From an uncultured virus (IMG/VR IMGVR_UViG_3300025333_000001) (Duplodnaviria > Heunggongvirae > Uroviricota > Caudoviricetes > Thumleimavirales > Hafunaviridae), in IMG/VR virus record IMGVR_UViG_3300025333_000001: a stretch of DNA of 20,000 bases. One strand, written 5' to 3'. Below, one piece after another: positions 1-19,356 of this stretch. Every line of letters begins with the position of its first letter. Within the stretch, counting starts at the first letter, position 1. A model generated the notes under the pieces. It was given only the letters and a program-made list of their open reading frames with translations, searched no databases and was not told where the DNA came from. Made by a program: the position numbers and the translations under genes.

Positions 1-23
1 ATTGGCCGCTACCCCATGGGACT
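1..23 (-). tRNA. 5' part of a tRNA, probably tRNA-Gln (runs off the window edge)
   Basis: Minus strand reads AGTCCCA TG GGGT AGCGGCCAAT: acceptor 5' strand, D-stem and D-loop with GG. It closely resembles the start of haloarchaeal tRNA-Gln as I recall it. The anticodon lies outside the window. Confidence 0.75.
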
Positions 24-2679: not shown

Positions 2680-2735
2680 TTCAACTGGGTTTCAACTGGG
2701 TTTCAACTGTGGGGTTCAACCACTGGGGTTCAACC
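2680..2735. repeat. Degenerate tandem repeat TTCAACTGGGT (5 units, 11-14 nt)
   Basis: Units start at 2680, 2691, 2702, 2715 and 2729. Confidence 0.85.
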
Positions 2736-2979
2736 TCACAGTAAGTACAGTACTACAGCACTAACCGTTAGAGCAACCTCATCGAGTTACAACACCGAGT
2801 TGTTACACCACGGTTTAGACTGCGGTGTTAAACAATGGGTTTATACCTCTGTAGCAACTAAGCTGTGTTGTAGCGGTGCGTTGCTGTGTGGTGCTGTGTG
2901 GTGCTGTACTGTTGTGTTATTGTAGTAGCCCCGTCCTCGAATTACAACACGAGTTGTTACAACACTGGGTTGATACCTT

Positions 2980-3076
2980 CAGTAGTAACCCTACAGTAGT
3001 AACCCTACAGTAGTAACCCTACAGTAGTAACCCTACAGTAGTAACCCTACAGTAGTAACCCTACAGTAGTAACCCT
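2980..3076. repeat. Perfect 14-bp tandem repeat CAGTAGTAACCCTA, ~6.9 copies
   Basis: Units at 2980, 2994, 3008, 3022, 3036, 3050 and 3064 (last 13/14). Confidence 0.97.
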
Positions 3077-3146
3077 TAAGGTAATCCCCCTTCTGTATGT
3101 TTCCCCCTTTGTAGCAAACCGTGGGTGGCTGCCCTCGTGTTTCCCG

Positions 3147-5077: not shown

Positions 5078-5150
5078 AGCTTCAGTCCCACACGATGTGG
5101 GAAAGCTGCCGAGGGGGCGTGACCCCCGTGGAGTCTTACTCTTCGGCAGT
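5078..5150 (-). ncRNA. Module 1: mini-tRNA (5150-5105) plus leader hairpin
   Basis: ACTGCCG AA GAGT-AAG-ACTC CA CGGGG GTCACGC CCCCT CGGCAGC, then TCCCACA-TCG-TGTGGGA, then ATG. Confidence 0.65.
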
Positions 5151-5836: not shown

Positions 5837-6948
5837 AGCTAACCGATTACACTGACAACGCTGAAACGGACAGTCAGGACCGTCCTGTTGACGCGTTCGA
5901 TAGCGAAGCGCTGCACGAAGAAGAACACGAACAGAACGACAATTGGGAATGGAGCGCGGAATTTACGGAGTTCATCCACGACGAGATCGAAGGGCGGTCG
6001 TTGAAGGTCTGTCCGGGACTCCGTCCGATCTGCGACGTGAATCTGGACATCAAACATCTCGGTGACATCGCTGACTCCGACAACGCAGCTTTCAACGTCG
6101 AACCCATCACGAGTAGTTCTGACCGGCTGCAAGACCTTCGTGGAACGGTTAGTGATGATGCCGGGGAAGACATCATCTACGGTCGCATCACCGGTGAGAA
6201 CGGCGACACGGACGGCCTGTACGACGGGTACGCGTGCTACGGCGACATGTTCGAACTACCGTTCGATGACAACTCGTTCGACACGGTCGTCGGGGACCCG
6301 CCGTGGTTGAACCTCACAACAGAGGAACGTCGAGTGCTCTTCGAGGAAATCGTTCGCGTCACTGCCCCGACAGGGAAAATCATGTACAACGCCACGTGGA
6401 TACCGGAGGATGAACACGCTCGACAGTTCCAACTCCGATTCCGGCAACAACTGGACTATTGGGGCGGACCGAGCTTCGCAGCGTTCTACCGCCGTTCCGC
6501 TCGTGACATCCCCGAACTGTTCGATGCACATGATTACGAATCCGTAGAGCGATACCCGGAGGAATCCGCGTTCTGGTCAGAGGCGTTGAGTACTGAGCAT
6601 AACACTGACCCGAAGAAAGTCAGTGGTGACTCTGACTATCACCAGTACTGTTGCCCGATGTGCGGGTGCGCGCAACTCGGGCACCTTCGCGGCGAGTTCT
6701 TCGAAACCAGTGACGGTGAGTACAACACGTATCAGTGTCATAACTGCGAATTCCGTGTTGATTCTGCGGAAGTTAATCGTCTCGCTGAGGCACTGGAAAC
6801 CGCAACTGCTGAACAGAACGTCTCCGTACAGGAACTCACCGATATTGAGTACACGCCTTCCTGCGTTGAACAACAGTTAGAACAACTCGGTCCAAATGAC
6901 TCGTTGGATGATGCTCCGTTCTCTGCGGACCTTCCGTGGGTACCGTGA
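5833..6948 (+). CDS. Amino-methyltransferase-like protein (DPPW) with C-terminal zinc ribbon
   Basis: GDMFELPFDDNSFDTVVGDPPW, EIVRVTAPTG and CPMC..CHNC; ATGA overlap with the upstream gene. Confidence 0.75.
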   Translation: MKLTDYTDNAETDSQDRPVDAFDSEALHEEEHEQNDNWEWSAEFTEFIHDEIEGRSLKVCPGLRPICDVNLDIKHLGDIADSDNAAFNVEPITSSSDRLQDLRGTVSDDAGEDIIYGRITGENGDTDGLYDGYACYGDMFELPFDDNSFDTVVGDPPWLNLTTEERRVLFEEIVRVTAPTGKIMYNATWIPEDEHARQFQLRFRQQLDYWGGPSFAAFYRRSARDIPELFDAHDYESVERYPEESAFWSEALSTEHNTDPKKVSGDSDYHQYCCPMCGCAQLGHLRGEFFETSDGEYNTYQCHNCEFRVDSAEVNRLAEALETATAEQNVSVQELTDIEYTPSCVEQQLEQLGPNDSLDDAPFSADLPWVP

Positions 6949-7267: not shown

Positions 7268-7337
7268 AACTACCCCACACGGTGTGGGAAAGCTGCCGTG
7301 GGGCCGTGAACCCCGTGGAGTCTTACTCTTCGGCAGC
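7268..7337 (-). ncRNA. Module 2: mini-tRNA (7337-7292) plus leader hairpin
   Basis: GCTGCCG AA GAGT-AAG-ACTC CA CGGGG TTCACGG CCCCA CGGCAGC (perfect 7-bp acceptor), then CCCACA-CCG-TGTGGG. Confidence 0.75.
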
Positions 7338-7595
7338 GGTCGCACTGTCAACGCGGTTGGCGACCCGCCTCAACATGGCCGCCTGATACTGCTCGTCGGT
7401 TGCTTCTTTCGGGTTTTCACGGTGATACCGTGCGAACCCCGTTGCCAACTCGCGGGCGTCCTCGGGTGACAACGCCCGTTTTTGCTCGCCGATCTGTACC
7501 CCCACTCGTTTACCATCTTCCGCGACCCATACCTTCATCTCATCGGGACCGCGCATCATGTTCCAGTCGGGGTCGTCAGCAAAGCCGAACGCCAC
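7323..7595 (-). CDS. Hypothetical protein (90 aa)
   Basis: Acidic ORF starting 2 nt after the stop of the DUF932-like gene. Confidence 0.7.
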   Translation of the reverse strand: MAFGFADDPDWNMMRGPDEMKVWVAEDGKRVGVQIGEQKRALSPEDARELATGFARYHRENPKEATDEQYQAAMLRRVANRVDSATAAEE

Positions 7596-7597
7596 GA

Positions 7598-8959
7598 CTA
7601 CTCGTCGGCTGCCGTGGGGGCAACCAACATTTCTTGGAGTTGTTCCTGTCGCGTTTCGAACTCTTCTTTCTGGTCTTCGACCGTGGCTTGGAACTTCTCG
7701 ACGGCTGCCCCGTAGGACATGGCATCGAGTTCGCCCTCATCTTCGGCGGCAGCCCGCTGTCGGGCTTCGCGCTGCTGGGCGTTGTTTTCCGTCCGGTCGA
7801 TGGCCTGCGCCGGATTCATGATCATGTCGTTGCTCGCCGATACCAACTCGTTGAGGCGGTTGGTGTTCTCCCCACCGCGGTAGTGGTGCGTGATGGCGTA
7901 GGTTGCCCCACTCTGCATCTCCCACATGGTGGGGAGGAACTGGTTGTCGGCACGACTCCGAACGTGACTGGACGCCTCACGGGCGAGGTACGACGGGAAG
8001 CCCGCCATCTCGAACCACGCTTGCAGGTCGTCGGTGTGGCCCACAAGCTCCGAGAACTCGAAACTCAGGTAGTCCACGTCGATCTGGTTGGCCGTCTCGA
8101 TGACTTCGGCCAGTTTGTCAGTCATGAGATCCATGTCGGCAAGAATCTCGTCCCACCATTCGCGGGTTTCCGATGGCTCACCGACGTGACGACGCGACTT
8201 CTGGTCGGTCACGTTGCGGATCGAGTTGGAACACCACGTATCCTGTGCGAACCCTTCGGCGTACATGGCTGTTCCACCGAAGTAGTCGTAGCCAGTGCGG
8301 ATACCGAGGAGGATCGGGCCGCCCGACTCGCCCCCATCGGTAGCCACGTTGGGGTCGGCTCCGGGGTTGTCAATGCGGAAGGCATCGAACAGCATCTCGA
8401 TGTGAACCTCACCGCCACCTTTGTAGGTGCGGATCTCCCCGAACACGGCGTCCCCGAGTTCCTCCTCGCGGATGGCCTCTTCGAGCGGGCCGTAGAAGTC
8501 GAGGGGGTTGACAATCGCGTAGTCTTTTGTCGGGTTGTGCCACAGGGGGTCGATCCACTGGTTGTTGTCGTCCCGTCGGGCATCACCCTGAATCCAGCTT
8601 TCGAGCTTGTCGGGCGAGATCACCGACTGGAACCGGTCGGTTTGAACGAACACGTTGCCGTCCATCGTTTCGTGGAACGTGACACCATCGGGGGTGTCGT
8701 CGCTCAGTTCGTCCACGTCGATGTTGCGAGCGACCTGCTCGGGAATCTTCCACGCGTTGCCCGTTTCTTCTGCTCGTTCAAGGCCACGGATGGCTGTTGC
8801 GAGCGAGGTGTCGGGCATATCGTCGGGGTAGAACCCGTTGTCTCGGCTGTGATCACCGCTGGCTGCGTCTGCTGCCTTCTCGCTGAGTTCGACATTGTTA
8901 TGGCTGGTTAGTCCTGCAAACTGTACCGTTTCGTCTGGGGTTGAACTTCGTCGGTTCAT
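7598..8959 (-). CDS. DUF932-like phage/plasmid protein with C-terminal coiled coil
   Basis: YAIVNP..F, GYDYFGG, CSNS and RRHVG pattern recalled for DUF932; strongly acidic 453 aa. Confidence 0.65.
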   Translation of the reverse strand: MNRRSSTPDETVQFAGLTSHNNVELSEKAADAASGDHSRDNGFYPDDMPDTSLATAIRGLERAEETGNAWKIPEQVARNIDVDELSDDTPDGVTFHETMDGNVFVQTDRFQSVISPDKLESWIQGDARRDDNNQWIDPLWHNPTKDYAIVNPLDFYGPLEEAIREEELGDAVFGEIRTYKGGGEVHIEMLFDAFRIDNPGADPNVATDGGESGGPILLGIRTGYDYFGGTAMYAEGFAQDTWCSNSIRNVTDQKSRRHVGEPSETREWWDEILADMDLMTDKLAEVIETANQIDVDYLSFEFSELVGHTDDLQAWFEMAGFPSYLAREASSHVRSRADNQFLPTMWEMQSGATYAITHHYRGGENTNRLNELVSASNDMIMNPAQAIDRTENNAQQREARQRAAAEDEGELDAMSYGAAVEKFQATVEDQKEEFETRQEQLQEMLVAPTAADE

Positions 8960-9051
8960 AGGTTTGTCCCACCAATTGTTTAACCGGAGTCGATGGCGGG
9001 TTTCGACTCGATGAGGCGGCGCAGAGTCGAACTGCGCTACACCAACGCCTC
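8960..9051 (-). ncRNA. Module 3: mini-tRNA (9051-9013) plus H-type pseudoknot (9009-8968)
   Basis: GAGGCG TTGGTGTA GCGCAG TTCGACT CTGCGC CGCCTC A, then GAGTCGA AA CCCGCCA TCGACTC N12 TGGTGGG ACAAACCT ATG. Confidence 0.8.
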
Positions 9052-9090
9052 GGCGGCTACCGGTCGCTAACTATTCGTTTCCTCGTTGAT

Positions 9091-9576
9091 TTATCCGTTG
9101 ACGACTGCCTCGGCGAACAGACGACCCGACTCAAAGTCGTCTGGCTTAGCGATTACGACTGGGTAGCTGTATCCCCAGTTGTAGTCAGTGAGCCGCTTTG
9201 CAATCGAGTGCATCACACCACTCACTGCGTAATGGTAGTCCGTCGTGTCGTGTCCCGTGGGAGATAGGTACTCCTTATACCGCGCATCATCAGTAGCTAA
9301 CACGATCACGTCGTCTGTTTCCTCTACAAGCCGGTAGTGACCTTGCTCGATACCATACATGTGCTCACTCCACGTCTCCTCAGCGGACCGCTGGAACGTT
9401 TCGAGAGCTTCGCGCACTTTATTGATATCTTGGATCGCCCCGCCGTCGGTCCCGTGTTCGATGTCGTCGTTGGTGATGTGCTGGGTTCGATCATCGATCT
9501 CACCGCCGTCGGTTCGGATCTCTGTTGTTTCGCTGACGCACTCTTCAAGATCGTCAAAGTGGACTCGTGGGTTCAT
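9091..9576 (-). CDS. Hypothetical protein (161 aa, MNPRVHFDD...), paralog of 17878..18195
   Basis: Acidic; ATG 1 nt after the upstream stop; shared H..A..LTDY.W...PVV..K motif. Confidence 0.75.
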   Translation of the reverse strand: MNPRVHFDDLEECVSETTEIRTDGGEIDDRTQHITNDDIEHGTDGGAIQDINKVREALETFQRSAEETWSEHMYGIEQGHYRLVEETDDVIVLATDDARYKEYLSPTGHDTTDYHYAVSGVMHSIAKRLTDYNWGYSYPVVIAKPDDFESGRLFAEAVVNG

Positions 9577-9577
9577 G

Positions 9578-10183
9578 TTATTGCTCAATTGTAGCTGCGG
9601 TTTGTTCGTCGTCCTGTTCGGCGGCGTCTTCGAGTTCCGACCCGAAGAGGGTCGGCGGCATTTCACCCTGATGGCTGCCATCGTAGGCTTCGGAATCGTC
9701 GGCCTCAACTAAGATGAGTTGGGCGACTGGGTACCCCACTGGCAGGTGAACACAGTCCAACGACTGTGGCACTTGCAGGAGGCCCTCACCAACGCCGTTG
9801 TAGCCTTGATCCCACACCGCAGTGGTGATCTCCATTCCCGACCGCATGAACCGACTGCGCGGCTTCACGAGGCCGACGTGGCCTTCAGGAATGGTGATGT
9901 GTTCGCCGTACTCGATGATATATGACCCCGAATAGACACGGTAGAACGGCGACTTGGTGTTACCCATTGGGTCAAACGTTCGCATTCGAGTTCGCTGGCC
10001 GTGATCGTAGCCATCGTCGTTGCCCTCGGCGTCGGCATAGAAGTGAACTGTTCCGCTCGTTCGGAGCAGATCACCAACTGTCAGGTCAACCCCGTTGGGC
10101 TGAATTTGGTCGTCGTCAATCGGTTCGCCGGTTCGGTTTTTGGTGAGGTGTTCAACTACGAACTCCCCGGATCTGACTGTCAT
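9578..10183 (-). CDS. dCTP deaminase / trimeric dUTPase family protein
   Basis: IQPNGVDLTV, PRSRFMRSG, AVWDQGYNG, VAQL and YDG..QG motifs. Confidence 0.9.
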   Translation of the reverse strand: MTVRSGEFVVEHLTKNRTGEPIDDDQIQPNGVDLTVGDLLRTSGTVHFYADAEGNDDGYDHGQRTRMRTFDPMGNTKSPFYRVYSGSYIIEYGEHITIPEGHVGLVKPRSRFMRSGMEITTAVWDQGYNGVGEGLLQVPQSLDCVHLPVGYPVAQLILVEADDSEAYDGSHQGEMPPTLFGSELEDAAEQDDEQTAATIEQ

Positions 10184-10259
10184 AGTTTGGATTTTATGTG
10201 TTTGTTCATCAACTATTCGCTCTCGAAATTTTGGGCGATTTTCCGTGAGTTTTGACCGT

Positions 10260-10733
10260 TTATGCTATCGCCCCATTGTGATTTATCGACCATTCAACGT
10301 AATCGCTCCATTCTTTGGCGAAGTTGTTGCGTTTTTTCGCGTTGAACTCGCGGATGGTATCGAGATCTTCGGCACTCCACCCGTATTCAGCCGCCTGTTC
10401 TCTATCACGAAGATACGGCCATGCGGTTACGGCGATCAGATAGCCGTCGTGGTGGTGTCCGGCAATGAACCACCATTCGACGCCGTCGTTGTGTCTCATC
10501 CAATGAAAGGATGAACAGCCGTCGCCGTTGTTTTTCAACTCACCCTCAACGATTGTTCGCTGAATGACCTCGTTGGTCAAAAACCGCTCAGGATCTTTGA
10601 ACCGCTGTCGGAAGTGATCTGTTCGCCGGTATTTGTGTGGTTGGTGAGGGTAATCAGCGGGGTCAAACGTTCGTGACCGATCAACGGGAACCCGCTCATC
10701 GGAATTGTGCGGTACTTGTACTGTTGGATTCAT
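10260..10733 (-). CDS. Hypothetical protein (157 aa, MNPTVQVP...)
   Basis: Start reassigned to the ATG behind the leader hairpin. TDHFRQR...AVTAW is loosely like RelE/DUF4258-type folds (unverified). Confidence 0.7.
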   Translation of the reverse strand: MNPTVQVPHNSDERVPVDRSRTFDPADYPHQPHKYRRTDHFRQRFKDPERFLTNEVIQRTIVEGELKNNGDGCSSFHWMRHNDGVEWWFIAGHHHDGYLIAVTAWPYLRDREQAAEYGWSAEDLDTIREFNAKKRNNFAKEWSDYVEWSINHNGAIA

Positions 10734-10811
10734 GGTAGTATTTGTCCCGTCGAACTGCACGACGGGGGATGCACTGCCGGGGAATCGAACCCCGAGTCGC
10801 CCATTCAGTGC
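10734..10811 (-). ncRNA. Module 4: mini-tRNA (10811-10771) plus leader hairpin
   Basis: GCACTGA ATGGGCGACT CGGGG TTCGATT CCCCG GCAGTGC A, then CCCGTCG-TGCAGTT-CGACGGG ACAAATACTACC ATG. Confidence 0.8.
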
Positions 10812-10908
10812 TGGCATCACGAGTCCCCACTCGATGACGCCGCCGACGGAGGTTGCTCACTCCGAGTAAATAATTAACTCGGGGGGACTTAGTTGTTACG
10901 TCCGGGGG

Positions 10909-12006
10909 TTACTCGTCGTCCAGAATGATGACGCTTCGAGCCATCGGCTCCTCCTCGTGCCGCTCGATGTCGAAGGCTACGTTGACCCCCTGTTCGATGC
11001 TGTCGATCTCGATCTCCGTGGGATAGAAGAACACGTCGTCAGCAACATCTTCGGACTCGATGAAGCCGTAGCCACCAACGTCGTTGAAGAAGGCGACCTC
11101 ACCCCCGTAGTCTCGACCGTGGAGTGGGTCTTTCCCTTCGGCGACCTCCTCGCTTTCCTGCTCGCGTTCTTTGACTGCTTCGACTTCGGCTTCAAGTTCG
11201 GTTCGAAGATCGTCAATAACGTTGCGTGTCTCGCCTGCAATCGGAGCGCGGTTGGCAGCCTGTTTGATGTCATGCCATCGGCCGAAGAACAGGTGTAGCT
11301 CTTCGGCAATATCCGATGGAACCGAATGAACCGCTCCAATCGATTCGAGAGCTTCGGCAATCGTCGGCTGGGTATCCCGCGTGTGATCGTTGACCATCTC
11401 TCGGTACTTGTGGCAGAAGTCCATCAGCACGTCGTTGTCTAGTTCCAGCACGCTTTCGAACTTTTCCTGATCTTCGAAGACAACCACGTTGGAAAAGGCG
11501 ATGAAGTCGATCCACATCGCCAACTCGTTGACCCCACAGTGACAGAACGGGCAGAACTCCATCTGACTGGTGAACGCGTCTCGAACGTTGAGCGAAGACC
11601 GAATGTCGTGGTTGTTCTTACCATCCGAGTGGCCGTGGTACAGCCCACAGACCTTACACTCGTACCCCGAAGTTTCGCTGTGTTCGACCATGCTACTCGC
11701 TTCTTCGAGAACGCCAGCCAAATCGGGGTTGACATCCTTGATCCGGCTGATCTCGTTTTCGATCTCGTCTTTGCTGATCCCCGATGGGACGCTGTGACTA
11801 CCGAGCTTCCACTGGCTTACATAATCGGGTTCTTCCGGGGGAGTGTAGGACTCGCCCTGTTCGGCGGCGTCCCCGGTTTCCGACTCCTCTTCGTCCCCAG
11901 CGAGCCGACCGAGGAAATTTCGCACCGGGTCTTCGAATTTGCGTGCGGTTGATTCGTCGTTGGTTTCTGCGTCGTTGCTACCGTTGTTGTTGTTGCTTCC
12001 GAACAT
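10909..12006 (-). CDS. Cys/His-rich protein fused to a C-terminal cold-shock (OB) domain
   Basis: GEVAFFNDVGGYGFI..DDVFF..GVNVAFDIE; CKVCGLYHGH and CPFCHC. Confidence 0.8.
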   Translation of the reverse strand: MFGSNNNNGSNDAETNDESTARKFEDPVRNFLGRLAGDEEESETGDAAEQGESYTPPEEPDYVSQWKLGSHSVPSGISKDEIENEISRIKDVNPDLAGVLEEASSMVEHSETSGYECKVCGLYHGHSDGKNNHDIRSSLNVRDAFTSQMEFCPFCHCGVNELAMWIDFIAFSNVVVFEDQEKFESVLELDNDVLMDFCHKYREMVNDHTRDTQPTIAEALESIGAVHSVPSDIAEELHLFFGRWHDIKQAANRAPIAGETRNVIDDLRTELEAEVEAVKEREQESEEVAEGKDPLHGRDYGGEVAFFNDVGGYGFIESEDVADDVFFYPTEIEIDSIEQGVNVAFDIERHEEEPMARSVIILDDE

Positions 12007-12099
12007 AGGTTGTATCCCGCTTGTTTTATGTCATTGCGCTCGGCGGGCTTGCGCTCAAGTCCCGGTGGGGGAGTCGAACCCCCTTACGCCGTCACCGGG
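12007..12099 (-). ncRNA. Module 5: mini-tRNA (12099-12061) plus pseudoknot, family B
   Basis: CCCGGT GACGGCGTAA GGGGG TTCGACT CCCCC ACCGGG, then GCGC AAG CCCGC CGA GCGC N15 GCGGG ATACAACCT ATG. Confidence 0.8.
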
Positions 12100-12175
12100 T
12101 TAGCCACCGCTGGGTGTGGGCCGAGATGAACGGGCCACCCTTCTCGGCCCAAAATAAACGTCACCGCAGATACGC

Positions 12176-12550
12176 TCACATCAATCGGCGCTCAGCGCCG
12201 TACACGATTTTCGAGGATGCTTCGTACCCACAGTTCCGGCACTCGAACCAGCGCTGAATCTTCGCACCGTCAGCCGTTTTCCCCCCGATTGCCACGTCGC
12301 TGTTCGGACACTCGGGACAACTCAGTTCGGGCGCTGGCCGTTTCCGTAGCTCATCACGAAACGATTTCGCGTCCTTCGTCTCGTACCCCCGCGACCACAC
12401 TGGGTAGCCGTCTACGAGGATTACGCCACGCCACTTGTAGCGGTACGAATTCGGTGCTTGGTGTAAGACCGCCAGAGCGCCGGTCTCGGTATTCCGGTAT
12501 GCGAGTGTGGGCGTGCGGCTTTCACGTCGCCAGTTTGTGATTCTGGGCAT
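12176..12550 (-). CDS. Zinc-ribbon protein of a type common on haloarchaeal mobile elements
   Basis: CPEC..CRNCG. The MPRITNWRRES start is familiar from haloarchaeal hypotheticals (recalled). Confidence 0.75.
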   Translation of the reverse strand: MPRITNWRRESRTPTLAYRNTETGALAVLHQAPNSYRYKWRGVILVDGYPVWSRGYETKDAKSFRDELRKRPAPELSCPECPNSDVAIGGKTADGAKIQRWFECRNCGYEASSKIVYGAERRLM

Positions 12551-12647
12551 AGGTTGTATCCCGCTTGTTTTGTGTCATTGCGCTCGGCGGGCTTGCGCTC
12601 AATGCCTAATGGGGGCCGTGAACCCCCCGAGGTCTTAGCTTTTAGGC
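12551..12647 (-). ncRNA. Module 6: mini-tRNA (12647-12604) plus pseudoknot, family B
   Basis: GCCTAAA AGCTAAGACCTCG GGGGG TTCACGG CCCCC ATTAGGC A. Leader 12548-12602 is 54/55 identical to 12004-12058. Confidence 0.75.
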
Positions 12648-13010
12648 GGTTGCATCAGGCAGCCACAAGTCTTTGTATTTTCGGCTGTCGAACCCGATTT
12701 TCTTCGGCGCATCATCGATGCCAGTACCATTGAGAATGACATCCACGTTTTTCTCCGAAGTTAGTCCGGCTGTTGAGAAGTGGCACTTCGTTGTTTGTGA
12801 TCCGGCCTGACTTCGGGTGTTTGAACCGTTGGCCCACCCTGCAAACGTCACGATGAACCCCTCAGCGGTTCGCAGGGCGTACACCGCGTGGCCGTACCCC
12901 ACGAGAATGGTTCCCCCTTGATCCGTTTCGTGGATTTTCATGTTCGATGCAGTTCCGCTCGTTTCTCCGCGTAGAAACCGTCGTCCGAGTTCGTGTTGGT
13001 TGTAACTCAT
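12642..13010 (-). CDS. Hypothetical protein (122 aa)
   Basis: 4-nt overlap with the upstream gene; in the operon orientation. Confidence 0.7.
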   Translation of the reverse strand: MSYNQHELGRRFLRGETSGTASNMKIHETDQGGTILVGYGHAVYALRTAEGFIVTFAGWANGSNTRSQAGSQTTKCHFSTAGLTSEKNVDVILNGTGIDDAPKKIGFDSRKYKDLWLPDATA

Positions 13011-13696
13011 TGGTTGTTAGGTGCGTTTTTGAGTGCCCAAATGGACTTTGCAAAGAACTCCATCTCGCTGTCCGAAAGACGGAACTTCTGGCCGTCAATT
13101 GTTAGCGTACGATCCATGTCTTTGGTTGCTGACTGGACGTTTATCTTGTACGCTTCTTGCGACGAGCCGTTGCTGACTGCCGAACCGCTCACCTGACGGC
13201 TGGTGGTGTCGGGGTGGTGGAACTTACCTTCGAATGTCAACAGGAGGTGATCGTAGATCAGCCACCCCCCATCCTCGTGTTCGACTGCTTGTGAGAATGG
13301 AGCTTTCGTTGCCAGCGATTCGAAGACGTGGGTTCGAATCTGCTTGTTTCGAATCGAATCGAACATCTGAATCAACTGCTCCGGGGTGTCCGATTCGTAG
13401 TGGTCCATAAGTGCATCAATCAGCCGAGATTGATGGTGTGAACCGAGATGCAGCGGTTCGAGGTCGTCAACAACCAGAGTGTAGCTGTTGTCTTCATCCT
13501 CGATGGGGGCCACTTCAACTCGTGGGGTGGTGTCGGTGGCACCGATCATCAGTATTTCGTCGCCTTCTCGGAGCAGCCCCCACAGATCGTGATCGTACAG
13601 CAGCTTGTTCATGGGGGACAGGGAGATCATTTCTACCCGTCCATCGTCGTGTTGGACTAACAGGTTTGCGTCAGTTTCGTCTAATATTGTTGGCAT
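13007..13696 (-). CDS. Hypothetical protein (229 aa)
   Basis: Long acidic ORF in the operon orientation. Confidence 0.8.
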   Translation of the reverse strand: MPTILDETDANLLVQHDDGRVEMISLSPMNKLLYDHDLWGLLREGDEILMIGATDTTPRVEVAPIEDEDNSYTLVVDDLEPLHLGSHHQSRLIDALMDHYESDTPEQLIQMFDSIRNKQIRTHVFESLATKAPFSQAVEHEDGGWLIYDHLLLTFEGKFHHPDTTSRQVSGSAVSNGSSQEAYKINVQSATKDMDRTLTIDGQKFRLSDSEMEFFAKSIWALKNAPNNQ

Positions 13697-13702
13697 GGTA
13701 TG

Positions 13703-13849
13703 TCACTCATCGGCGGCGTCCTCGATTAGTTGCTCGTCACTATCCTCTTCAGCATACCCCTCTTCCCACTCGTACAGTGAGTGATACTCATCGGGGTCAA
13801 TATGGTTGTGTGCCCGGCCTTTTTTGTGCGTTAACGGGGGTAGATCCAT
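13703..13849 (-). CDS. Small acidic protein (48 aa) MDLPPLTHKKGRAHNHIDPDEYHSLYEWEEGYAEEDSDEQLIEDAADE
   Basis: Fills the gap between two genes; SD-like GGATGTGAT upstream; halophilic composition; below the ORF-track cutoff. Confidence 0.55.
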   Translation of the reverse strand: MDLPPLTHKKGRAHNHIDPDEYHSLYEWEEGYAEEDSDEQLIEDAADE

Positions 13850-13874
13850 GATCCCAGTATCACATCCCTTCCGG

Positions 13875-16658
13875 TCACTCGGAGTCTTTGTTCCAGCCCC
13901 GGTCGTCTACGGTTCCAACGGTCTTGCGAAGCGACAGGGCGTCCATGTCCATGGGGTTGAGGCCCACATCGTACAGGCCGAGGATCATGTTTTCAACCCG
14001 GCTGTCGGCATCTTTAAGGAGCGAGTAGACACCGCTGTCGTCGTCCCATTCGGGCGTTTTCGCCTTGAGCCGGTATTCCGACTCACTGCCAGACAAGTAG
14101 TCGAACGAGATCCGGGCTGGCCCACGGTAGTAGTTGCCATTGGTGCCACCCCATGTGGATTTCACCCCGTGGATGTTGTTGATGATGCACTTGTTGAGAG
14201 CGAATGCCATCCGTTCGAGGGTTCGATCATCGGCCACCCCGACAACCACGTCTTCGATCTCCGGCTTGTTGTCACTCCCAGTCGACCAGTACTGGCCGTT
14301 GACCTCGTCTTCGGCGTAGTAGTAGCGAAGCTGGGCCATCTCCTCAGTGTCGGCCATCATGGTTTTGACCGTGTTGTTGTGAGCGTAGACAACCACCGCG
14401 AAGTCAGCGTCGCTTAGTTCGGCTGCCGTCATGGCACCGTCACTCGTTGCCATGACCGCGTTCTCCGACATCTCGGTGAACTCCTCGTAGGATACCACCC
14501 GGTCGTATTCCGACAACACATCGAACTCTGCGGCAGAACAGGAAGCGATTGCCCCGTATTCCTGCATCGGGTAGTGATCCGAGATGTTGGCATCGCCGTT
14601 TCGTGGGAACAGGATTACGTAGTTGTGACCCCACATACGGATACCATCATCGAGCTTGTCGGTGAGGGTGCCGATTGTCGCCCGTTTGTCAATCGACTGG
14701 TTGTTGTTGTTGGTTCGGAACTTGAGTGTCACCTCATCGATGTTGTCCGCTTTGCCCCCGCCGTTCGATGTGGATTTCTTGCGCTTGTGACGACTGTGAA
14801 TCGCGTCGGACACTTCGAAGTCATGGTCGTCACTCTGCTGCATTGGCACGTCGTTGAGCCGTTGGAACCCGAAGATGCCCTCGAACTGATCGTAGCCAAT
14901 CGACGCACCACTGGTCGAGATAACAGCCGGATCATCGAAGGTATCATGGACCACCTTGTACTTGTCCTCGTTGATCGTCTTCCCCATAAACACCTGTTCC
15001 GGCGGGGTTGACGACAGGATCTCGCCCACCATCCGCCCGGTTCGGTTGGACTTTTGGCTGGGTGCATGGCATCGCTTACCGGCATAACTTACGTCTTCGA
15101 ACAGTCGGAACACCTGTTCTCGGAGTTCATTATCCCACCCGGATAACTCGGCATGGTTATCAACGAACTTGTCGAACTCGTTGCGGCGTTTCGTCGCGTT
15201 GTAACTATGGTAGTCAACCATGCGGTAGAACAGTTCCCACGACTGGGTGTCGTTCCGAAAGACATCTGTCGGGCGATCTGCATCCCGCATTTTGTCAGCG
15301 ATATCACTGACCTTTTCCATCTCGGCGTCTTCCACCATCTCGCTCAACATGGCGAAGAACCGCTCAGTCTTGCCGTCACGCTGTAGTCGATCCCGGTCGG
15401 TGGTTGGCTCCGGCATCGGTGCGTCAAGCTCATGCAGTTTGCCCTCGCGCTTTTCGACCTCGTTCCGGTACTCACCGCGGTGTGGCCCCATCACGATCTT
15501 ACCCTGTTCATCGTGAATGTGAATGAGAACCTTCCAGAACGATTTGACCTTCTTGTTCGTGTTGCGATCAATCTCCATGCCGACCAGCCACGTATCAGGA
15601 TCTTTGTAGCTGTTAGGCAGATCAGGCCCTGCAATCAGGGTGAACTCGCCGGGTCGGTCGATCACAACTGATGGGGTTTCGCCAAACGCCTCGGCGAATG
15701 GCTGGCCCCCGAACTCCTCTTTCTCACGGTTTCGACCAGCCTCATGCTCTTGATAGAGGACCGGAACGGCCAGTTTCGAGGCGTATTTCCGTGTCCACGA
15801 CAGGAACTTGTCCATGTTGACCGACTCCTGAATGGGAACATCGAACCGCGTTCCCCGAAAGTCGTCATCAATGTCGGCCGACGGCATGGGGTCGAACCCA
15901 GCGAGGTAGGTGTAGGCTTTGATGCCTTCGTAATCGTAGTCTTTGGCATCGGGTCGTCGGGTCCGTGACGTGACTTCCATCCCGCCCTGCTTGCCGGCGA
16001 TGGCCCCAAACGTCATAGCTCCGATCCCCCACTTCCCCCCGGTGTCGCCATCGATAGATGACCCCGAGTCGAACGTGGAGTTGTAAGCGTCGTTGAACTC
16101 TTTGACCGTCATACCAATGCCGTTGTCTTCGATCACAATCTTCCGCTCATCGCGGTAGAGATCGACCTCGATGGTTGGATCGTAGCCGAGATCACGAGCC
16201 GCGTCAATAATCTCGTGAAGGCTGCGGGGAATCTTCATTTCGCGGAACTTGTCACCGTCAAGGGACCACTCGGGTAGCAGACTTTGGTTGGCATCCTCTT
16301 GATCGAGCGTTTCCCCCGTTTTGGTGTTGACCCAGATCGTGGGGTTCAACCACTCCACCCCATAATCGGGGTGCTCTCTCAACAAAATGCGAGCCGCCCG
16401 AATACAGGCTGTCTGTGCGTTTTGAAGGAACTCCCGAATGAACGATGAATCGTCCGAGTAGATCGACTCGGCCAACACCTCGTTGGCCTTTTCGATGTTC
16501 ATCGTTCGCTCTTGCGACCCGGTGCTTCCCAGACCCCGTGCAAGGGGGTTGTTTTCGTCTACCGCGTTGATGTTTTTCGTTTCGAGATCACTTTCGACGT
16601 TCTGCACGCTTGATTCGTAACTATCCTTCGTTTCTGGCAGGTGTTCTGAATCGCTCAT
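13875..16658 (-). CDS. Large GHKL (Hsp90-like) ATPase-domain protein, 927 aa, possibly rIIA-like
   Basis: IYSD..FIREFLQNA, IEDNGIGMT, GKWGIG and GTRF motifs. Start reassigned to ATG 16658 behind the repeat leader. Confidence 0.85.
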   Translation of the reverse strand: MSDSEHLPETKDSYESSVQNVESDLETKNINAVDENNPLARGLGSTGSQERTMNIEKANEVLAESIYSDDSSFIREFLQNAQTACIRAARILLREHPDYGVEWLNPTIWVNTKTGETLDQEDANQSLLPEWSLDGDKFREMKIPRSLHEIIDAARDLGYDPTIEVDLYRDERKIVIEDNGIGMTVKEFNDAYNSTFDSGSSIDGDTGGKWGIGAMTFGAIAGKQGGMEVTSRTRRPDAKDYDYEGIKAYTYLAGFDPMPSADIDDDFRGTRFDVPIQESVNMDKFLSWTRKYASKLAVPVLYQEHEAGRNREKEEFGGQPFAEAFGETPSVVIDRPGEFTLIAGPDLPNSYKDPDTWLVGMEIDRNTNKKVKSFWKVLIHIHDEQGKIVMGPHRGEYRNEVEKREGKLHELDAPMPEPTTDRDRLQRDGKTERFFAMLSEMVEDAEMEKVSDIADKMRDADRPTDVFRNDTQSWELFYRMVDYHSYNATKRRNEFDKFVDNHAELSGWDNELREQVFRLFEDVSYAGKRCHAPSQKSNRTGRMVGEILSSTPPEQVFMGKTINEDKYKVVHDTFDDPAVISTSGASIGYDQFEGIFGFQRLNDVPMQQSDDHDFEVSDAIHSRHKRKKSTSNGGGKADNIDEVTLKFRTNNNNQSIDKRATIGTLTDKLDDGIRMWGHNYVILFPRNGDANISDHYPMQEYGAIASCSAAEFDVLSEYDRVVSYEEFTEMSENAVMATSDGAMTAAELSDADFAVVVYAHNNTVKTMMADTEEMAQLRYYYAEDEVNGQYWSTGSDNKPEIEDVVVGVADDRTLERMAFALNKCIINNIHGVKSTWGGTNGNYYRGPARISFDYLSGSESEYRLKAKTPEWDDDSGVYSLLKDADSRVENMILGLYDVGLNPMDMDALSLRKTVGTVDDRGWNKDSE

Positions 16659-16745
16659 AGGTTTTATCCCGGTCTTATATCGCGCCGTTCCGGGGTTATG
16701 GCGCAGGGGCCGCCGGGGAGTCGAACCCCGGTACTCCAACGGCCT
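16659..16745 (-). ncRNA. Module 7: mini-tRNA (16745-16707) plus pseudoknot, family A
   Basis: AGGCCGT TGGAGTAC CGGGG TTCGACT CCCCG GCGGCCC, then TGCGCC ATAAC CCCGG AAC GGCGCG ATATAAGA CCGGG ATAAAACCT ATG. Confidence 0.8.
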
Positions 16746-16787
16746 ATCGTCTGTCGTCTGTACTGACCGCAACCGGGTTAGAATGTA

Positions 16788-16976
16788 TTATCTGTTGAAT
16801 TCCTCAACAGAACCCGTTAATTCAATGACACGCACTGTACGGTGATCATTTTGGGGAACAATTTTGCACGGTTTGTCACTCCCGTTGGCGTTGTACACCC
16901 GCACTCTTTGCTGAAGGGCGTAGACTATTTCCTTCCCGTTTATGGTACTGACTGTTTTCCAACGGCTGTAGCTCAC
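16788..16976 (-). CDS. Small hypothetical protein (62 aa)
   Basis: GTGA start/stop overlap with the upstream gene. Confidence 0.5.
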   Translation of the reverse strand: MSYSRWKTVSTINGKEIVYALQQRVRVYNANGSDKPCKIVPQNDHRTVRVIELTGSVEEFNR

Positions 16977-17764
16977 GGTTCACCCCAGACAAACCCTTCG
17001 GCGTCCATCATCGGCTTAATGCTGTATTCGTATTGGTGCATCGGCGTTGTTTCCGAGCCGAGGACCCGAAGCCAGTGGTCGCCGCCTTCTAACTCGGCGT
17101 TGTGGTCGTAGCGAAGCCGCTTCAGGAACGAGTTGTGAAGTTTCACTGACGACCGATGCCACTCCTTGCGGCTTCGGGTGTTTTTCTGAAGCACGTCGTT
17201 CGACTCTTTCGATGGGCGAACTTCGTAGTCGAAAAACGATTTGTAGAACGTGAACTTTAGCATCTCGTCCCAGAGCTTCAGTCTCTCGTCGCGGTTGATG
17301 ACGCCGAACTTCTCGGCAAGCATCTGCCGCAGGGCGATTTTTCGCTCGAAATGCTGCGGGTGGTGGTAGGTGGTTCGCTCTGCTATATCGAGTTCGTGTT
17401 GAACTACGGTCTGCTGAAGCCACTCGGGAACAGCTTTGAGTTCGTACTCGATGCTGTTGATGTAGCGCAAAACGTCGGCGTTGCGGTTGCCACTGATGCC
17501 GGACGACACCCAGTCGAGCAAGAGGCTCCGAATCCCCTCGAACGCCTCATCATCGCTAACGGCGACGTTAACGAGCGTACCCCTCTTGATGCCGTTCTCC
17601 CCATCGAGACTCAGTACACCGCGAATTGCGTCTCTCTCCACCGGCTCAACGCCGCTTTCTGGCTCGCCTTCCAGCAACATTTGCGCCATGTCTCTCGCTC
17701 CGATGTGTTTCAGCACTTCGCCGACCATTTCCTCTGCTCGGATTCGTCGTGTATTTTGGTTCAT
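16973..17764 (-). CDS. Hypothetical protein (263 aa, MNQNTRR...)
   Basis: Start reassigned to the ATG behind the repeat leader. Confidence 0.75.
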   Translation of the reverse strand: MNQNTRRIRAEEMVGEVLKHIGARDMAQMLLEGEPESGVEPVERDAIRGVLSLDGENGIKRGTLVNVAVSDDEAFEGIRSLLLDWVSSGISGNRNADVLRYINSIEYELKAVPEWLQQTVVQHELDIAERTTYHHPQHFERKIALRQMLAEKFGVINRDERLKLWDEMLKFTFYKSFFDYEVRPSKESNDVLQKNTRSRKEWHRSSVKLHNSFLKRLRYDHNAELEGGDHWLRVLGSETTPMHQYEYSIKPMMDAEGFVWGEP

Positions 17765-17860
17765 AGGTTGTATCCCGGTCTTATATCGCGCCGTTCCGGG
17801 GTTGTGGCGCAAGAGTCGTCGGGGGGATTGCACCCCGAACCAGCGTGGTTACTGCGACTT
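17765..17860 (-). ncRNA. Module 8: mini-tRNA (17860-17813) plus pseudoknot, family A
   Basis: AAGTCGC AGT AACCA-CGC-TGGTT CGGGG TGCAATCC CCCCG ACGACTC, then the pseudoknot at 17812-17774. Confidence 0.75.
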
Positions 17861-17877
17861 GTCGTTGATGTTCACTG

Positions 17878-18195
17878 CTACACCAATTTGTCAAACACGA
17901 CTGGATCAACAGCCGCCCAATCATAGTCAGTCAGTTCGCGTGCAACCTCGTGGTTCCACGCGTAAAACGCATCGCAATCCTCTTCAGTCATGTTAAAGTC
18001 AGACACCCACTCATTCAGCTCATGCCCAGTGTGGTCGGCCACAACGATCACCTGATCGTCTTCGTAGACGACCTCAGCGTCAGTATGAGGATCTTTGCGG
18101 TATTCGTACTCAAACTCACCGAAGTGCTCGGCCATCGAGATTTTCATCGCCTCGCTTCGCGGATCGTCGGTGCTGATGAATCCTTGTGTGTTCAT
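17878..18195 (-). CDS. Hypothetical protein (105 aa, MNTQGFIS...), paralog of 9091..9576
   Basis: ATGA overlap with the upstream gene; very acidic. Confidence 0.75.
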   Translation of the reverse strand: MNTQGFISTDDPRSEAMKISMAEHFGEFEYEYRKDPHTDAEVVYEDDQVIVVADHTGHELNEWVSDFNMTEEDCDAFYAWNHEVARELTDYDWAAVDPVVFDKLV

Positions 18196-18452
18196 TGTCG
18201 GTTGTTTTGCTCCATCCATTCGCGGGCCGGTTCGGCGGCGTTTTCGGGTTTGAGACCGACTTCGACGTAGTCGATTACCTGATTGTCTTGATAGTAGTTT
18301 TCTGGGAGTGTCACTACGTTGTAACTACTCCTCCCTTCCCGCTCAATGGCAAGCACAAGGCCATCGCGTCGCCGCTGAAACGTCTGTCGCTGGTGGTCGA
18401 ACTCTGGTTCAATCTCGGTCCATCCGGCTGGGGGTTTGACTTGCTGGTTCAT
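18192..18452 (-). CDS. Hypothetical protein (86 aa, MNQQVKPPAGW...), copy 1
   Basis: Close paralog of 19654..19914; ATG behind the repeat leader. Confidence 0.8.
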   Translation of the reverse strand: MNQQVKPPAGWTEIEPEFDHQRQTFQRRRDGLVLAIEREGRSSYNVVTLPENYYQDNQVIDYVEVGLKPENAAEPAREWMEQNNRQ

Positions 18453-18548
18453 AGGCTGTATCCCGGTCTTATATTGCGCCGTTCCGGGGTTGTGGCGCAA
18501 AAGCCGTCGGGGAGATTGCACCCCGAACCAGCGTGATTACTGCGACTT
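18453..18548 (-). ncRNA. Module 9: mini-tRNA (18548-18501) plus pseudoknot, family A
   Basis: AAGTCGC AGT AATCA-CGC-TGGTT CGGGG TGCAATCT CCCCG ACGGCTT. Differences from module 8 preserve pairing. Confidence 0.75.
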
Positions 18549-18596
18549 GTGGTTGATGTTCACTGTCGGTTGTTTTGCTCCATCCGTCTGACTCAC

Positions 18597-19259
18597 CTAT
18601 ATCTCTCGGTTGATAGCTTCGCTGTGGTATGCCTCTCGGAACGCGGGCAACACATCCTCTTTATGGATATGATATCCGATATCGGTAGGTGTGGTGTCGT
18701 AAGGCGCGTAACCAGCCAATTGTTGCAGTTGTGGGGCGATATTGTTGATGTATTGCGCCGAATCGGTTGGGATTTCGTAATGTTCGTCTGGAGCGAACAC
18801 ATCGGTAGGAGCATAGTCCCGACCAATTTCCGCAGCGCGTTCGGCAGCCTTTTCGCCGATCTCTTCAATGGTGAGACAATCTGTGTCTGCAAAGCCGCCC
18901 AACTCCTCCGTCATACGCAGGCGGAAGCGCAATTCTGGGTCATACGACTTGTGGACGAGCAGATTCACGTTAAGCGGTTTTTCACAGTCCTCGCACACTG
19001 GCGCTGGATAATCCCATTCAGCATCACCGAAGATTGCGCCATTATCATTATCAGCTAATTCCTCATCAGTAGCACAGTTACCACAGATGATATCGCAGTC
19101 ATTGACCACGATCCCCGCAAGACCGTATGGGGCATATCCTGATGGTGTTTGCGATTTGAGGTTAGCATGGTCCTCGTACAGTGCTTCGGTCGAACTTACG
19201 ATGATTTCGTTGTTCAGGTCTTCGGCTCGCTGTCGTCGGGTTTGGGTGTCGTCACTCAT
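18597..19259 (-). CDS. Hypothetical acidic protein with CxxC..CxxC motif (220 aa)
   Basis: CGNC..CEDC; ATG behind the repeat leader. Confidence 0.75.
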   Translation of the reverse strand: MSDDTQTRRQRAEDLNNEIIVSSTEALYEDHANLKSQTPSGYAPYGLAGIVVNDCDIICGNCATDEELADNDNGAIFGDAEWDYPAPVCEDCEKPLNVNLLVHKSYDPELRFRLRMTEELGGFADTDCLTIEEIGEKAAERAAEIGRDYAPTDVFAPDEHYEIPTDSAQYINNIAPQLQQLAGYAPYDTTPTDIGYHIHKEDVLPAFREAYHSEAINREI

Positions 19260-19356
19260 GATTTGATTTCCCGGTCTTATATTGCGCCGTTCCGGGGTTG
19301 TGGCGCAAGAGTCGTCGGGGGGATTGCACCCCGAACCAGCGTGGTTACTGCGACTT
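19260..19356 (-). ncRNA. Module 10: mini-tRNA (19356-19309) plus pseudoknot, family A
   Basis: Nearly identical to module 8 over 19270-19358, with a different spacer to the ATG (AAATCAAATC). Confidence 0.75.

Follow-up and report, generated by a model that had tools for sequence, protein, structure and literature searches.

A repeated tRNA-like and putatively pseudoknotted leader cassette before the operons of a Hafunaviridae-like haloarchaeal virus

The minus strand of a 20,000-nt stretch of the uncultured virus record IMGVR_UViG_3300025333_000001 (IMG/VR), analysed here in full and referred to as the window, carries a repeated non-coding cassette in front of its genes. Ten intergenic modules are read on this strand, which holds all cassette features, and they lead to ATG codons at 19259, 18452, 17764, 16658, 12550, 12006, 10733, 8959, 7267, and 5077. 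The cassette is approximately 100 nt long, and its roughly 10 copies in 15 kb stand before about 10 unrelated genes or operons, leading units of one to four genes in which most inner genes overlap, start on stop. In the sense RNA, the order is a minihelix resembling part of a tRNA, 0–6 nt of single strand, an H-type pseudoknot (knot) motif or a CCC..GGG hairpin, a G-poor strip of A and C, and AUG. The sequence and position of the elements, the covariation of the two knot helices (S1 and S2), their strand specificity, and their distribution among relatives are direct observations. We consider the chances evenly balanced that these copies supply the structured portion of RNA "expression cassettes", which the virus repeats before its operons and which work as proposed below.

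The genes in the window indicate what kind of virus this is. A 927-aa open reading frame (ORF; 13875–16658, minus strand) has an HSP90-like ATPase domain and is 44% identical to proteins of HSTV-2, HRTV-7, HRTV-2, HRTV-11, HCTV-6, and HCTV-15 (Hafunaviridae, genus Mincapvirus), while a 453-aa ORF (7598–8959, minus strand) shares 67–71% identity with its counterparts in those isolates. The DNA runs containing the stretch are salt-lake and lake-water metagenomes. Based on these protein identities and this source, the window is assigned to a Hafunaviridae-like haloarchaeal tailed virus, related to, yet distinct from, the cultured Mincapvirus isolates. The 365-aa product of a third gene, at 10909–12006 (minus strand), has a cold-shock domain at its C-terminus (Pfam CSD, E 1.1e-9) and is a candidate single-strand RNA binder for A/C-rich leaders.

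Seven of the modules hold the knot motif, in three sequence families, and the positions and stems given for them by an earlier reading made from the letters alone (the sequence-only reading) are exact on the minus strand, with a classical H-type topology. Family A comprises four copies with S1 (T)TGCGCC/GGCGCR(A), S2 CCCGG/CCGGG, a third loop (L3) of 8 nt, and a spacer of 9–10 nt between S2 and ATG. The first, A1 (19270..19307), pairs TGCGCC at 19307–19302 with GGCGCA at 19288–19283 (S1) and CCCGG at 19296–19292 with CCGGG at 19274–19270 (S2), followed by a 10-nt spacer and the ATG at 19259–19257. The other three have 9-nt spacers: A2 (18462..18499; S1 18499–18494/18480–18475, S2 18488–18484/18466–18462, ATG 18452–18450), A3 (17774..17811; S1 17811–17806/17792–17787, S2 17800–17796/17778–17774, ATG 17764–17762), where an outer U.G pair extends S1 just beyond the listed spans, and A4 (16668..16705; S1 16705–16700/16686–16681, S2 16694–16690/16672–16668, ATG 16658–16656), which heads the HSP90-like ATPase gene. 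Both copies of family B have S1 GCGC/GCGC, S2 CCCGC/GCGGG, an L3 of 15 nt, and a 9-nt spacer: B1 (12560..12598; S1 12598–12595/12583–12580, S2 12591–12587/12564–12560, ATG 12550–12548) and B2 (12016..12054; S1 12054–12051/12039–12036, S2 12047–12043/12020–12016, ATG 12006–12004), which directly precedes the cold-shock-domain gene. Family C, before the 453-aa gene, is a single copy (8968..9009) with S1 GAGTCGA at 9009–9003 and TCGACTC at 8993–8987, S2 CCCGCCA at 9000–8994 and TGGTGGG at 8974–8968, loops of 2 (L1), 0 (L2), and 12 nt (L3), the 8-nt spacer ACAAACCT, and the ATG at 8959–8957. The seven copies therefore amount to only three independent sequences. All other details described earlier for these copies also proved correct, namely that S1 alternates between U-A and U-G within family A, that families A and B differ in S2 by a G-C to C-G swap, that L3 is A-rich, and that the S2 3' strand ends in GGG before an 8–10-nt spacer and ATG. 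So did the description of the remaining three modules as simple CCC..GGG hairpins: CCCGTCG/CGACGGG at 10746..10766 with spacer ACAAATACTACC and ATG 10733, CCCAC..GTGGG(G) at 7273..7288 with spacer GTAGTT and ATG 7267, and CCCACA tcg TGTGGG at 5087..5101 with spacer ACTGAAGCT and ATG 5077 (all minus strand). The sole variant inside a module, among the 40 variants listed of 686 in the DNA contigs of four runs, is an A>G change at 12028, which falls in the L3 of B2.

Beyond the window, HSTV-2, HRTV-7, HRTV-11, and HCTV-6 carry this cassette as well, upstream of several genes that lie in the same genome arm. When a covariance model made from nine leaders (R1) was run on the whole HSTV-2 and HRTV-7 genomes, its matches were confined to that arm, apart from two other sites. 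Through an alignment of the HSP90-like proteins, eight further IMG/VR sources were retrieved at 35–41% identity, seven of which have cassette matches; contigs L153, L154, L155, L157, and L158 supply new knot families, and G001, the nearest record available, supplies two more. Other searches were narrower in yield. The single 927-aa protein query found no matches in viral contigs, and an alignment of the 453-aa protein (A1) found only near-identical contigs among viral and metagenome contigs and none among genome contigs. A further protein alignment (A5) likewise had zero matches in genome contigs, and hence no provirus copies were found there. When viral contigs were scanned with the 15-mer pattern GGGATAMAACCTATG, a module was seen only in L035 among the 115 matches listed, and the remaining matches look like chance. 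The cassette was absent from HF2 (first 45 kb) and HRTV-DL1.

Overall, 25 knot-type modules were assembled in a table made by our own script, which takes the structure from each module's own sequence and so leans towards pairing; they have 17 distinct S1 and 20 distinct S2 helices. S1 measures 4–7 bp, S2 4–8 bp, L1 1–5 nt, L2 0–3 nt, and L3 7–17 nt. The 5' strand of S2 lies inside the S1 hairpin loop and its 3' strand downstream of S1 in 7 of 7 window copies and 25 of 25 modules. Geometric rules for H-type knots allow both helices at once with loops of such lengths, and those of the 25 modules thus permit S1 and S2 simultaneously. The loops differ between families in sequence and length, and L3 is 52% A (152 of 294 bases), A-rich third loops being found in knots stabilised by minor-groove triples.

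One side observation concerns the start of L3, which reads RAUGA right after S1 in 9 of the 25 modules: W_B1 and W_B2 (12579–12565 and 12035–12021 in the window), L154 13571 and 12617, L155 11713, L157 14896 and 11868, G001 498, and HSTV-2 38317. Three of these read GUGAUGA, like a C box or kink-turn half, and the AUG within RAUGA also opens short upstream frames. In the HSTV-2 module L117 11400, AUGA stands instead at the 3' end of L3, and an 8-codon frame, seen by eye, has its UGA overlapping the main AUG. A coding or upstream-ORF basis of the knot region was rejected for the modules taken together, since an upstream ATG does not occur in every family and the family A repeat holds a stop.

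That both stems covary, as the sequence-only reading had claimed from the window families, was upheld across many relatives, with double-sided changes in S1 and S2. With MAFFT, nine leaders of five families (alignment A3) and then twelve leaders of six families (alignment A8) were brought into structural register; family A and the G001 module could not be placed in register by MAFFT or by R1, which did detect the modules, and are absent from these tool-based pair counts. In the 12-sequence alignment, 85.9% of cells were standard pairs, compared with 31–44% when the 3' partner was slid by 1–3 columns. Changes on both sides affected 8 of 14 pairs (shuffled mean 4.5; as high in 2 of 500 shuffles), and the covariation score was 0.342 versus 0.213 (as high in 0 of 500 shuffles). 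Double changes fell in six of the seven S1 pairs and in two S2 pairs, with S2 paired in 94.9% of cells, and the pair counts of the nine-sequence alignment agree.

Individual comparisons illustrate these exchanges. The leaders of the 453-aa gene have S1 GAGTCGA/TCGACTC in the window and GGACG/CGTCC in HSTV-2 with identical flanks. The homologous modules G001 498 and HSTV-2 38317 have flanks and L3 in common while both helices have changed together, S1 from GGCG/CGCC to GAGGU/GCCUC and S2 from CCACCC/GGGUGG to UCCCG/CGGGA. Other S2 helices are CACGCGU/ACGCGUG (G001 8943) and GUCCCGA/UCGGGAC (L157 14896), and the HSTV-2 3385 module has an extra hairpin ahead of its final helix, in which three pairs differ in a compensatory manner from those of HRTV-11.

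Of the 284 pairs in the 25-module table, 23 are G.U. Such pairs would be A.C mismatches on the opposite strand, and they agree with pairing in the sense RNA, not in that strand or in duplex DNA. These pairs bear on the explanation that the modules are DNA promoters, from which a leaderless mRNA would start at the ATG, with the A/T-rich L3 as TATA box and GGGACACAACCT as proximal or initiator region, as in the intergenic repeats of HF2. Those repeats carry promoters, with TATA motifs that start at -26 or lie within -19 to -26 (PMC8707807). L3 boxes of families A and C, of M2, and of G001 8943 begin 21–27 nt before ATG. However, the compensatory changes in two helices and the G.U pairs point to selection on the transcribed sense strand, where L3 is A-rich, not T-rich, and an A/T box is missing from the hairpin-type modules that share this GGGACACAACC. 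Several L3 are not TATA-like (e.g., GACGGCCAGCCTCA and AATGACACAAAACAA), and the interval between L3 and ATG differs among modules by over 10 nt (S2 of 4–8 nt plus a spacer of 7–18 nt), being approximately 13 nt in L155_11713 and 25 nt in L157_14896. The HF2 core CTTTAAGT had no exact match in the window, its six one-mismatch matches being at chance level, and the HF2-type core TAAGACTYAA in L153 and L158 lies upstream of the minihelix, outside the knot. A promoter is accordingly a very unlikely explanation of the modules.

We assessed the knot against chance with our own H-type finder, which allowed stems of at least 4 bp, G.U pairs, L1 of 1–8 nt, L2 of 0–4 nt, and L3 of 3–20 nt, and scored solutions by ViennaRNA stacking energies. 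The sequence-only reading had looked to pseudoknot-aware folding for support, and the topology stood: run blind, the finder returned the noted arrangement as its best solution in 13 of 13 leaders (7 from the window and 6 from Mincapvirus isolates). Dinucleotide shuffles reached the native score in 0 of 300 cases for eight leaders, 1 of 300 for two, 3 of 300 for two, and 17 of 300 for one. The background consisted of 1,572 non-module 56-nt windows of the same 20 kb in which S2 had to end 6–16 nt from the window end; 2.6% of them reached the family B score, 0.3% that of family A, and none that of family C. With five or six independent leader types present in the window, three such matches far exceed this background. 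Under a generic knot penalty of 9.6 kcal/mol, the knot outscored the nested minimum free energy (MFE) fold in 4 of 12 leaders, and the nested fold came out ahead in the other 8. As the energy model is crude (37 C, 1 M salt, triplex and coaxial-stacking terms omitted), thermodynamics alone would leave knot versus nested fold undecided.

Those eight leaders are one of several points that weigh against the favoured reading. One of the seven S2 pairs (CCC../..GGG) is invariant and four change on one side only, mostly by wobble, and therefore S2 covariation depends on few positions and on the more distant families. The modules are moreover paralogous repeats, and their "families" are no phylogeny. 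When 3' strands were mixed and matched among 40 modules, a module's own strand gave -11.0 kcal/mol with its own upstream region versus -9.2 kcal/mol for foreign strands (0 of 5,000 permutations as low), a modest effect. S1 of family B is a palindromic GCGC of 4 bp, and some relatives are degenerate: in L153 9649, S2 is 3 bp and no knot was found. The A/T-rich L3 of several families lies approximately 17–29 nt before ATG, a possible TATA position for a leaderless mRNA. Finally, several modules in relatives are hairpin-only, as are 3 of the 10 in the window, and these hairpin-type modules show that the knot is optional.

Part of this evidence would suit an explanation without a knot, in which S1 and S2 are alternative or independent hairpins, or a switch, and only a stable 5' helix and a paired GGG matter. 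Nested MFE folds do hold S1 alone or S2 alone, and the crude estimate that prefers them in two-thirds of the leaders (8 of 12) and the hairpin-only modules point the same way. What argues for the knot is that the interleaved geometry is constant in 25 modules with loop lengths that allow both helices, that both helices covary, and that L3 is as rich in A as in triple-stabilised knots. An explanation without a knot hence seems quite unlikely to us, and the covarying, interleaved helices suggest that the knot probably forms.

Downstream of the final helix, the modules converge. The spacer (6–20 nt) is 45% A, 38% C, and 4% G, compared with 28% G across the sense strand, and its consensus ACACAACC sits directly at the helix end. 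The lack of a Shine-Dalgarno sequence, asserted earlier for the window copies, extends to the wider set, SD-like tetramers preceding the ATG in just 1 of 40 modules. Conservation is strongest where the helix meets ACACAACC: extra bases enter between ACACAACC and AUG, not at this junction, and hairpin-type modules share the GGG-ACACAACC junction with knot modules. Because a stable hairpin replaces the knot in these modules, the requirement seems to be helix, GGG, and ACACAACC rather than the knot as such; what all modules have in common looks to be a stable helix whose terminal GGG adjoins ACACAACC, the knot being its more elaborate form. ACACAACC also precedes some ATGs without a helix.

Upstream of each knot copy in the window lies a tRNA-like element made of an acceptor-like helix and a T-arm-like hairpin (all minus strand). 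MFE folds place it at 19310..19355 (before A1), 18501..18548 (A2), 17814..17859 (A3), 16708..16744 (A4, with T-loop TTCGACT), and 12604..12647 (B1). The element before B2 (12061..12099) has a 7-bp acceptor CCCGGTG/CACCGGG, T stem GGGGG/CCCCC, and loop TTCGACT, and the one before C (9013..9051), read directly, has acceptor GAGGCG/CGCCTC, T stem GCGCAG/CTGCGC, and the same loop. When the 95 nt upstream of the knot were folded in 19 modules, the MFE structure ended every time (19 of 19) in a helix enclosing a T-arm-like hairpin, 0–6 nt before S1. By direct reading, the acceptor-like and T stems sum to 11–12 bp, and several T-loops read TTCGANT. The T-arm part is an 84% match to phage tRNA-Thr genes, and in G001, a full-length tRNA occupies the position of the minihelix. 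Neither ARAGORN nor the Rfam tRNA model called the minihelices as tRNAs, as expected of elements without D and anticodon arms. A weak Rfam match of transfer-messenger RNA (tmRNA) type at 16713–16777, on the A4 minihelix (E 0.011; 15.5 bits against a gathering score of 47), mirrors the acceptor/T-arm shape. Trans-translation of the tmRNA kind was rejected, as ARAGORN finds no tmRNA, the minihelix is self-closed, and the frames start with AUG. Since the tRNA-like element ends 0–6 nt before S1, a cut just behind the discriminator base would leave the knot at the extreme 5' end.

On the favoured reading, host RNase P and tRNase Z would cut the minihelix out of long viral transcripts, and the downstream mRNA would then begin with a 5'-phosphate a few nt ahead of a very stable, compact fold. 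This fold would shield the new end from 5'-end-dependent decay of the aRNase J type, and would keep the neighbouring A/C-rich strip and AUG single-stranded, such that the small ribosomal subunit could load without Shine-Dalgarno pairing. In Haloferax, RNase P and tRNase Z cut t-elements, tRNase Z produces the 5S rRNA 5' end (PMC4326828), and an aRNase J is present and the exosome lacking (PMC10470531). Taken together, the t-elements, aRNase J, and the layout of HF2 lead us to interpret the cassette as a tRNA-like signal that punctuates long viral transcripts. The parts of this reading differ in strength. A knot at the processed 5' end has somewhat better than even prospects, judging from the position of the minihelix. 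It is possible, if rather doubtful, that the knot stabilises the mRNA, and that it aids translation may be put forward with the same reserve, the two roles being compatible.

A more specific and unlikely version is that knot or hairpin docks on the 30S platform in place of the SD helix and offers the ACACAACC strip and AUG, while also acting as a cap-like shield for the 5'-monophosphate end. Such docking would make the cassette the equivalent, in an archaeal virus, of an internal ribosome entry element, with or without minihelix excision, and would imply factor-light, SD-independent initiation. To our knowledge, many haloarchaeal leadered mRNAs are translated without Shine-Dalgarno pairing by a route that is unexplained; if true, docking would provide a defined cis element for this mode of initiation.

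The conserved junction could alternatively serve a trans-acting viral or host RNA-binding protein, with the knot and GGG-ACACAACC strip as an operator that sets translation or stability of all cassette-headed operons jointly. The gene 32 leader of phage T4 works in this manner: its 5' pseudoknot seeds the binding of protein along a start region that lacks structure. The helix/ACACAACC junction is the part that insertions avoid, the cold-shock-domain protein is encoded directly behind B2, and the occurrence of ACACAACC before ATGs without a helix would also suit an operator. The loops vary by family, however, and the recognised surface would have to be the helix end and single strand. We rate an operator as rather improbable, and it is compatible with the favoured reading rather than exclusive of it.

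The same architecture invites comparison with ligand-sensing riboswitches of the small H-type class (preQ1, SAM-II, and fluoride), in which the G-rich S2 3' strand would be a weak ribosome-binding site sequestered by the fold. Small H-type riboswitches combine this topology with an A-rich 3' loop and a G-rich strand 8–10 nt before AUG, and the cassette resembles them in these respects. Yet no Rfam family matched the modules when the whole window was run through cmscan with E values of up to 1 admitted. Loop conservation from family to family is lacking, the element precedes about 10 unrelated genes, and the G-rich strand reads GGCGG, GGUGG, or CCGGG, not GGAGG. A riboswitch thus appears extremely unlikely.

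Returning to the favoured reading of a processed, structured leader, the cassette is short, natural, and conserved with compensatory changes in HSTV-2, HRTV-7, HRTV-11, and HCTV-6, whose hosts grow in culture. Being short, repeated, and conserved in viruses of growable hosts, it makes punctuation of polycistronic viral transcripts, 5'-end protection, and SD-independent start selection testable by reporters in Haloferax or Halorubrum; as far as we know, little is known of how archaeal processed 5'-phosphate mRNAs escape decay. As a tool, it could serve to place several genes on one haloarchaeal transcript, from which each would be released and expressed. Its elements are unannotated in the deposited genomes, and annotation would be corrected in places, as some HSTV-2 coding sequences (CDS) probably start at the ATG behind the motif. 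In HSTV-2 (L117), GACACAACCT-ATG and GGCGGGACTCGACCGAAA-ATG motifs lie inside annotated CDS at 6265–6309 and 7378–7424 (genes 96 and 94), with equivalents in L119 and L120; the first motif shares the frame of the annotated start, and translation of both genes may truly begin at the ATGs behind the motifs. We found no description of the cassette in the literature, with subscription papers on HSTV-2 and HRTV-7 and supplementary files outside coverage. What appears new is the joining of tRNA-like punctuation to a structured 5' leader, each kind being known separately.

Several further features of the window were noted. Full tRNA genes are present on the minus strand for Cys-GCA (601–673) and Ala-AGC (977–1071; 95 nt, with a probable intron), and the window end (approximately 1–20, minus strand) resembles the start of another tRNA, similar to the one preceding the G001 8943 knot. 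Adjoining tRNA-Ala, a module-like hairpin GGACGGG..CCCGTCC on the plus strand (1080–1131), followed by CGGCGGGACACAACCT and then ATT where ATG is expected, scores 23.7 bits with R1 and recurs in L127 (9968–10019); it could be a decayed cassette or one with a non-ATG start. A non-coding stretch at approximately 2700–3090, in the minus-strand reading, holds tandem short repeats, with about eight copies of the 14-nt unit GGGTTACTACTGTA and nearby units of the CCAGTTGAAAC type, and may be an origin or iteron region. Metagenome-assembly contig ends, loose ends, and joints cluster at module edges (9074, 12550, 16710, 17883, and 19275), with joints, for example, from 11986 to 12594, between the two B modules, and from 13011 to 17766. 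This clustering reflects either repeat-induced assembly breakage or true mosaic recombination.

Among known systems, the cassette is similar to the t-elements of Haloferax volcanii, in which a tRNA-like acceptor/T-arm lies in a longer transcript with a structured RNA directly downstream; their cleavage by RNase P and tRNase Z sets the ends of neighbouring RNAs and has been used to release icrRNAs (PMC4326828). The modules share their sequence-level features, with coaxial acceptor-like and T-arm-like helices and a T-loop in the MFE folds of 19 of 19 modules. In contrast to t-elements, the cassette is viral, present in about 10 copies in 15 kb, heads protein-coding operons, and is coupled to a knot or hairpin and an A/C-rich leader, its cleavage being a prediction. 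MALAT1 and MEN-beta offer a second parallel: RNase P cleavage at the tRNA-like mascRNA makes a 3' end that is protected by an upstream triple helix. Here too, tRNA-like punctuation would make a new RNA end next to a compact fold rich in A-minor or triple contacts, for which protection is proposed, but the cassette would have a 5' end made by tRNase Z with the knot downstream, belongs to another domain of life, and has no sequence relation. The exoribonuclease-resistant RNAs (xrRNAs) of flaviviruses and plant viruses likewise present a pseudoknotted fold on the 5' side, comparable with the proposed block to a 5'-3' exonuclease. The cassette has two helices and no third stem, hence no three-way junction, plain hairpins substitute for the knot in sister modules, and no Rfam xrRNA family matched in the window (cmscan, E up to 1); without a match or a three-way junction, the likeness is one of analogy only.

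HF2 (Haloferacalesvirus), of the same virus family, also has repeated intergenic control elements that head operons, in the order validated promoter repeat, tRNA(s), hairpin 1–5 nt past the tRNA end, conserved leader motif, and AUG. Its repeats differ in being AT-rich DNA promoters of unrelated sequence, its leader motif is ..AACCAGAGA.., and the first 45 kb contain no GGGACACAACC module or knot. The TAAGACTYAA core also occurs in L155 and L157, upstream of the minihelix, and is absent from the window. As an observation apart, this core has an inverted partner, GAGTCTTA, approximately 70 nt upstream of knots and before the minihelix at L153 2692, 6415, and 9533 and L158 11613, as well as in L155 and L157. 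HF2 itself (L126; 10292–10359, 18366–18640, and 20655–20990) has a type II hammerhead ribozyme in its annotation, placed between two CDS and representing a further kind of RNA punctuation, and the tRNA-hairpin-leader layout stands behind its promoter repeats IR2 and IR3, a parallel arrangement in the sister genus.

In the E. coli rpsO operator and the T4 gene 32 leader, an H-type knot docks on the 30S platform or nucleates protein, and like the cassette these leaders place it just upstream of an unstructured start region; they differ in serving single-gene autoregulation with an SD inside or adjoining, whereas the cassette is SD-free, precedes many genes, and belongs to an archaeal host. With tmRNA, the cassette has in common an acceptor/T-arm domain without anticodon arm, an H-type knot (PK1), approximately 10 nt, and the start of a reading frame (the resume codon). 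Its minihelix is in contrast self-closed and contiguous with the mRNA, its frames start with AUG and run to as many as 927 codons, and we know of no tmRNA in Archaea. Overall, the cassette falls outside xrRNAs, small riboswitches, and HF2 repeats, and has the sequence-level features of both t-elements and H-type knots.

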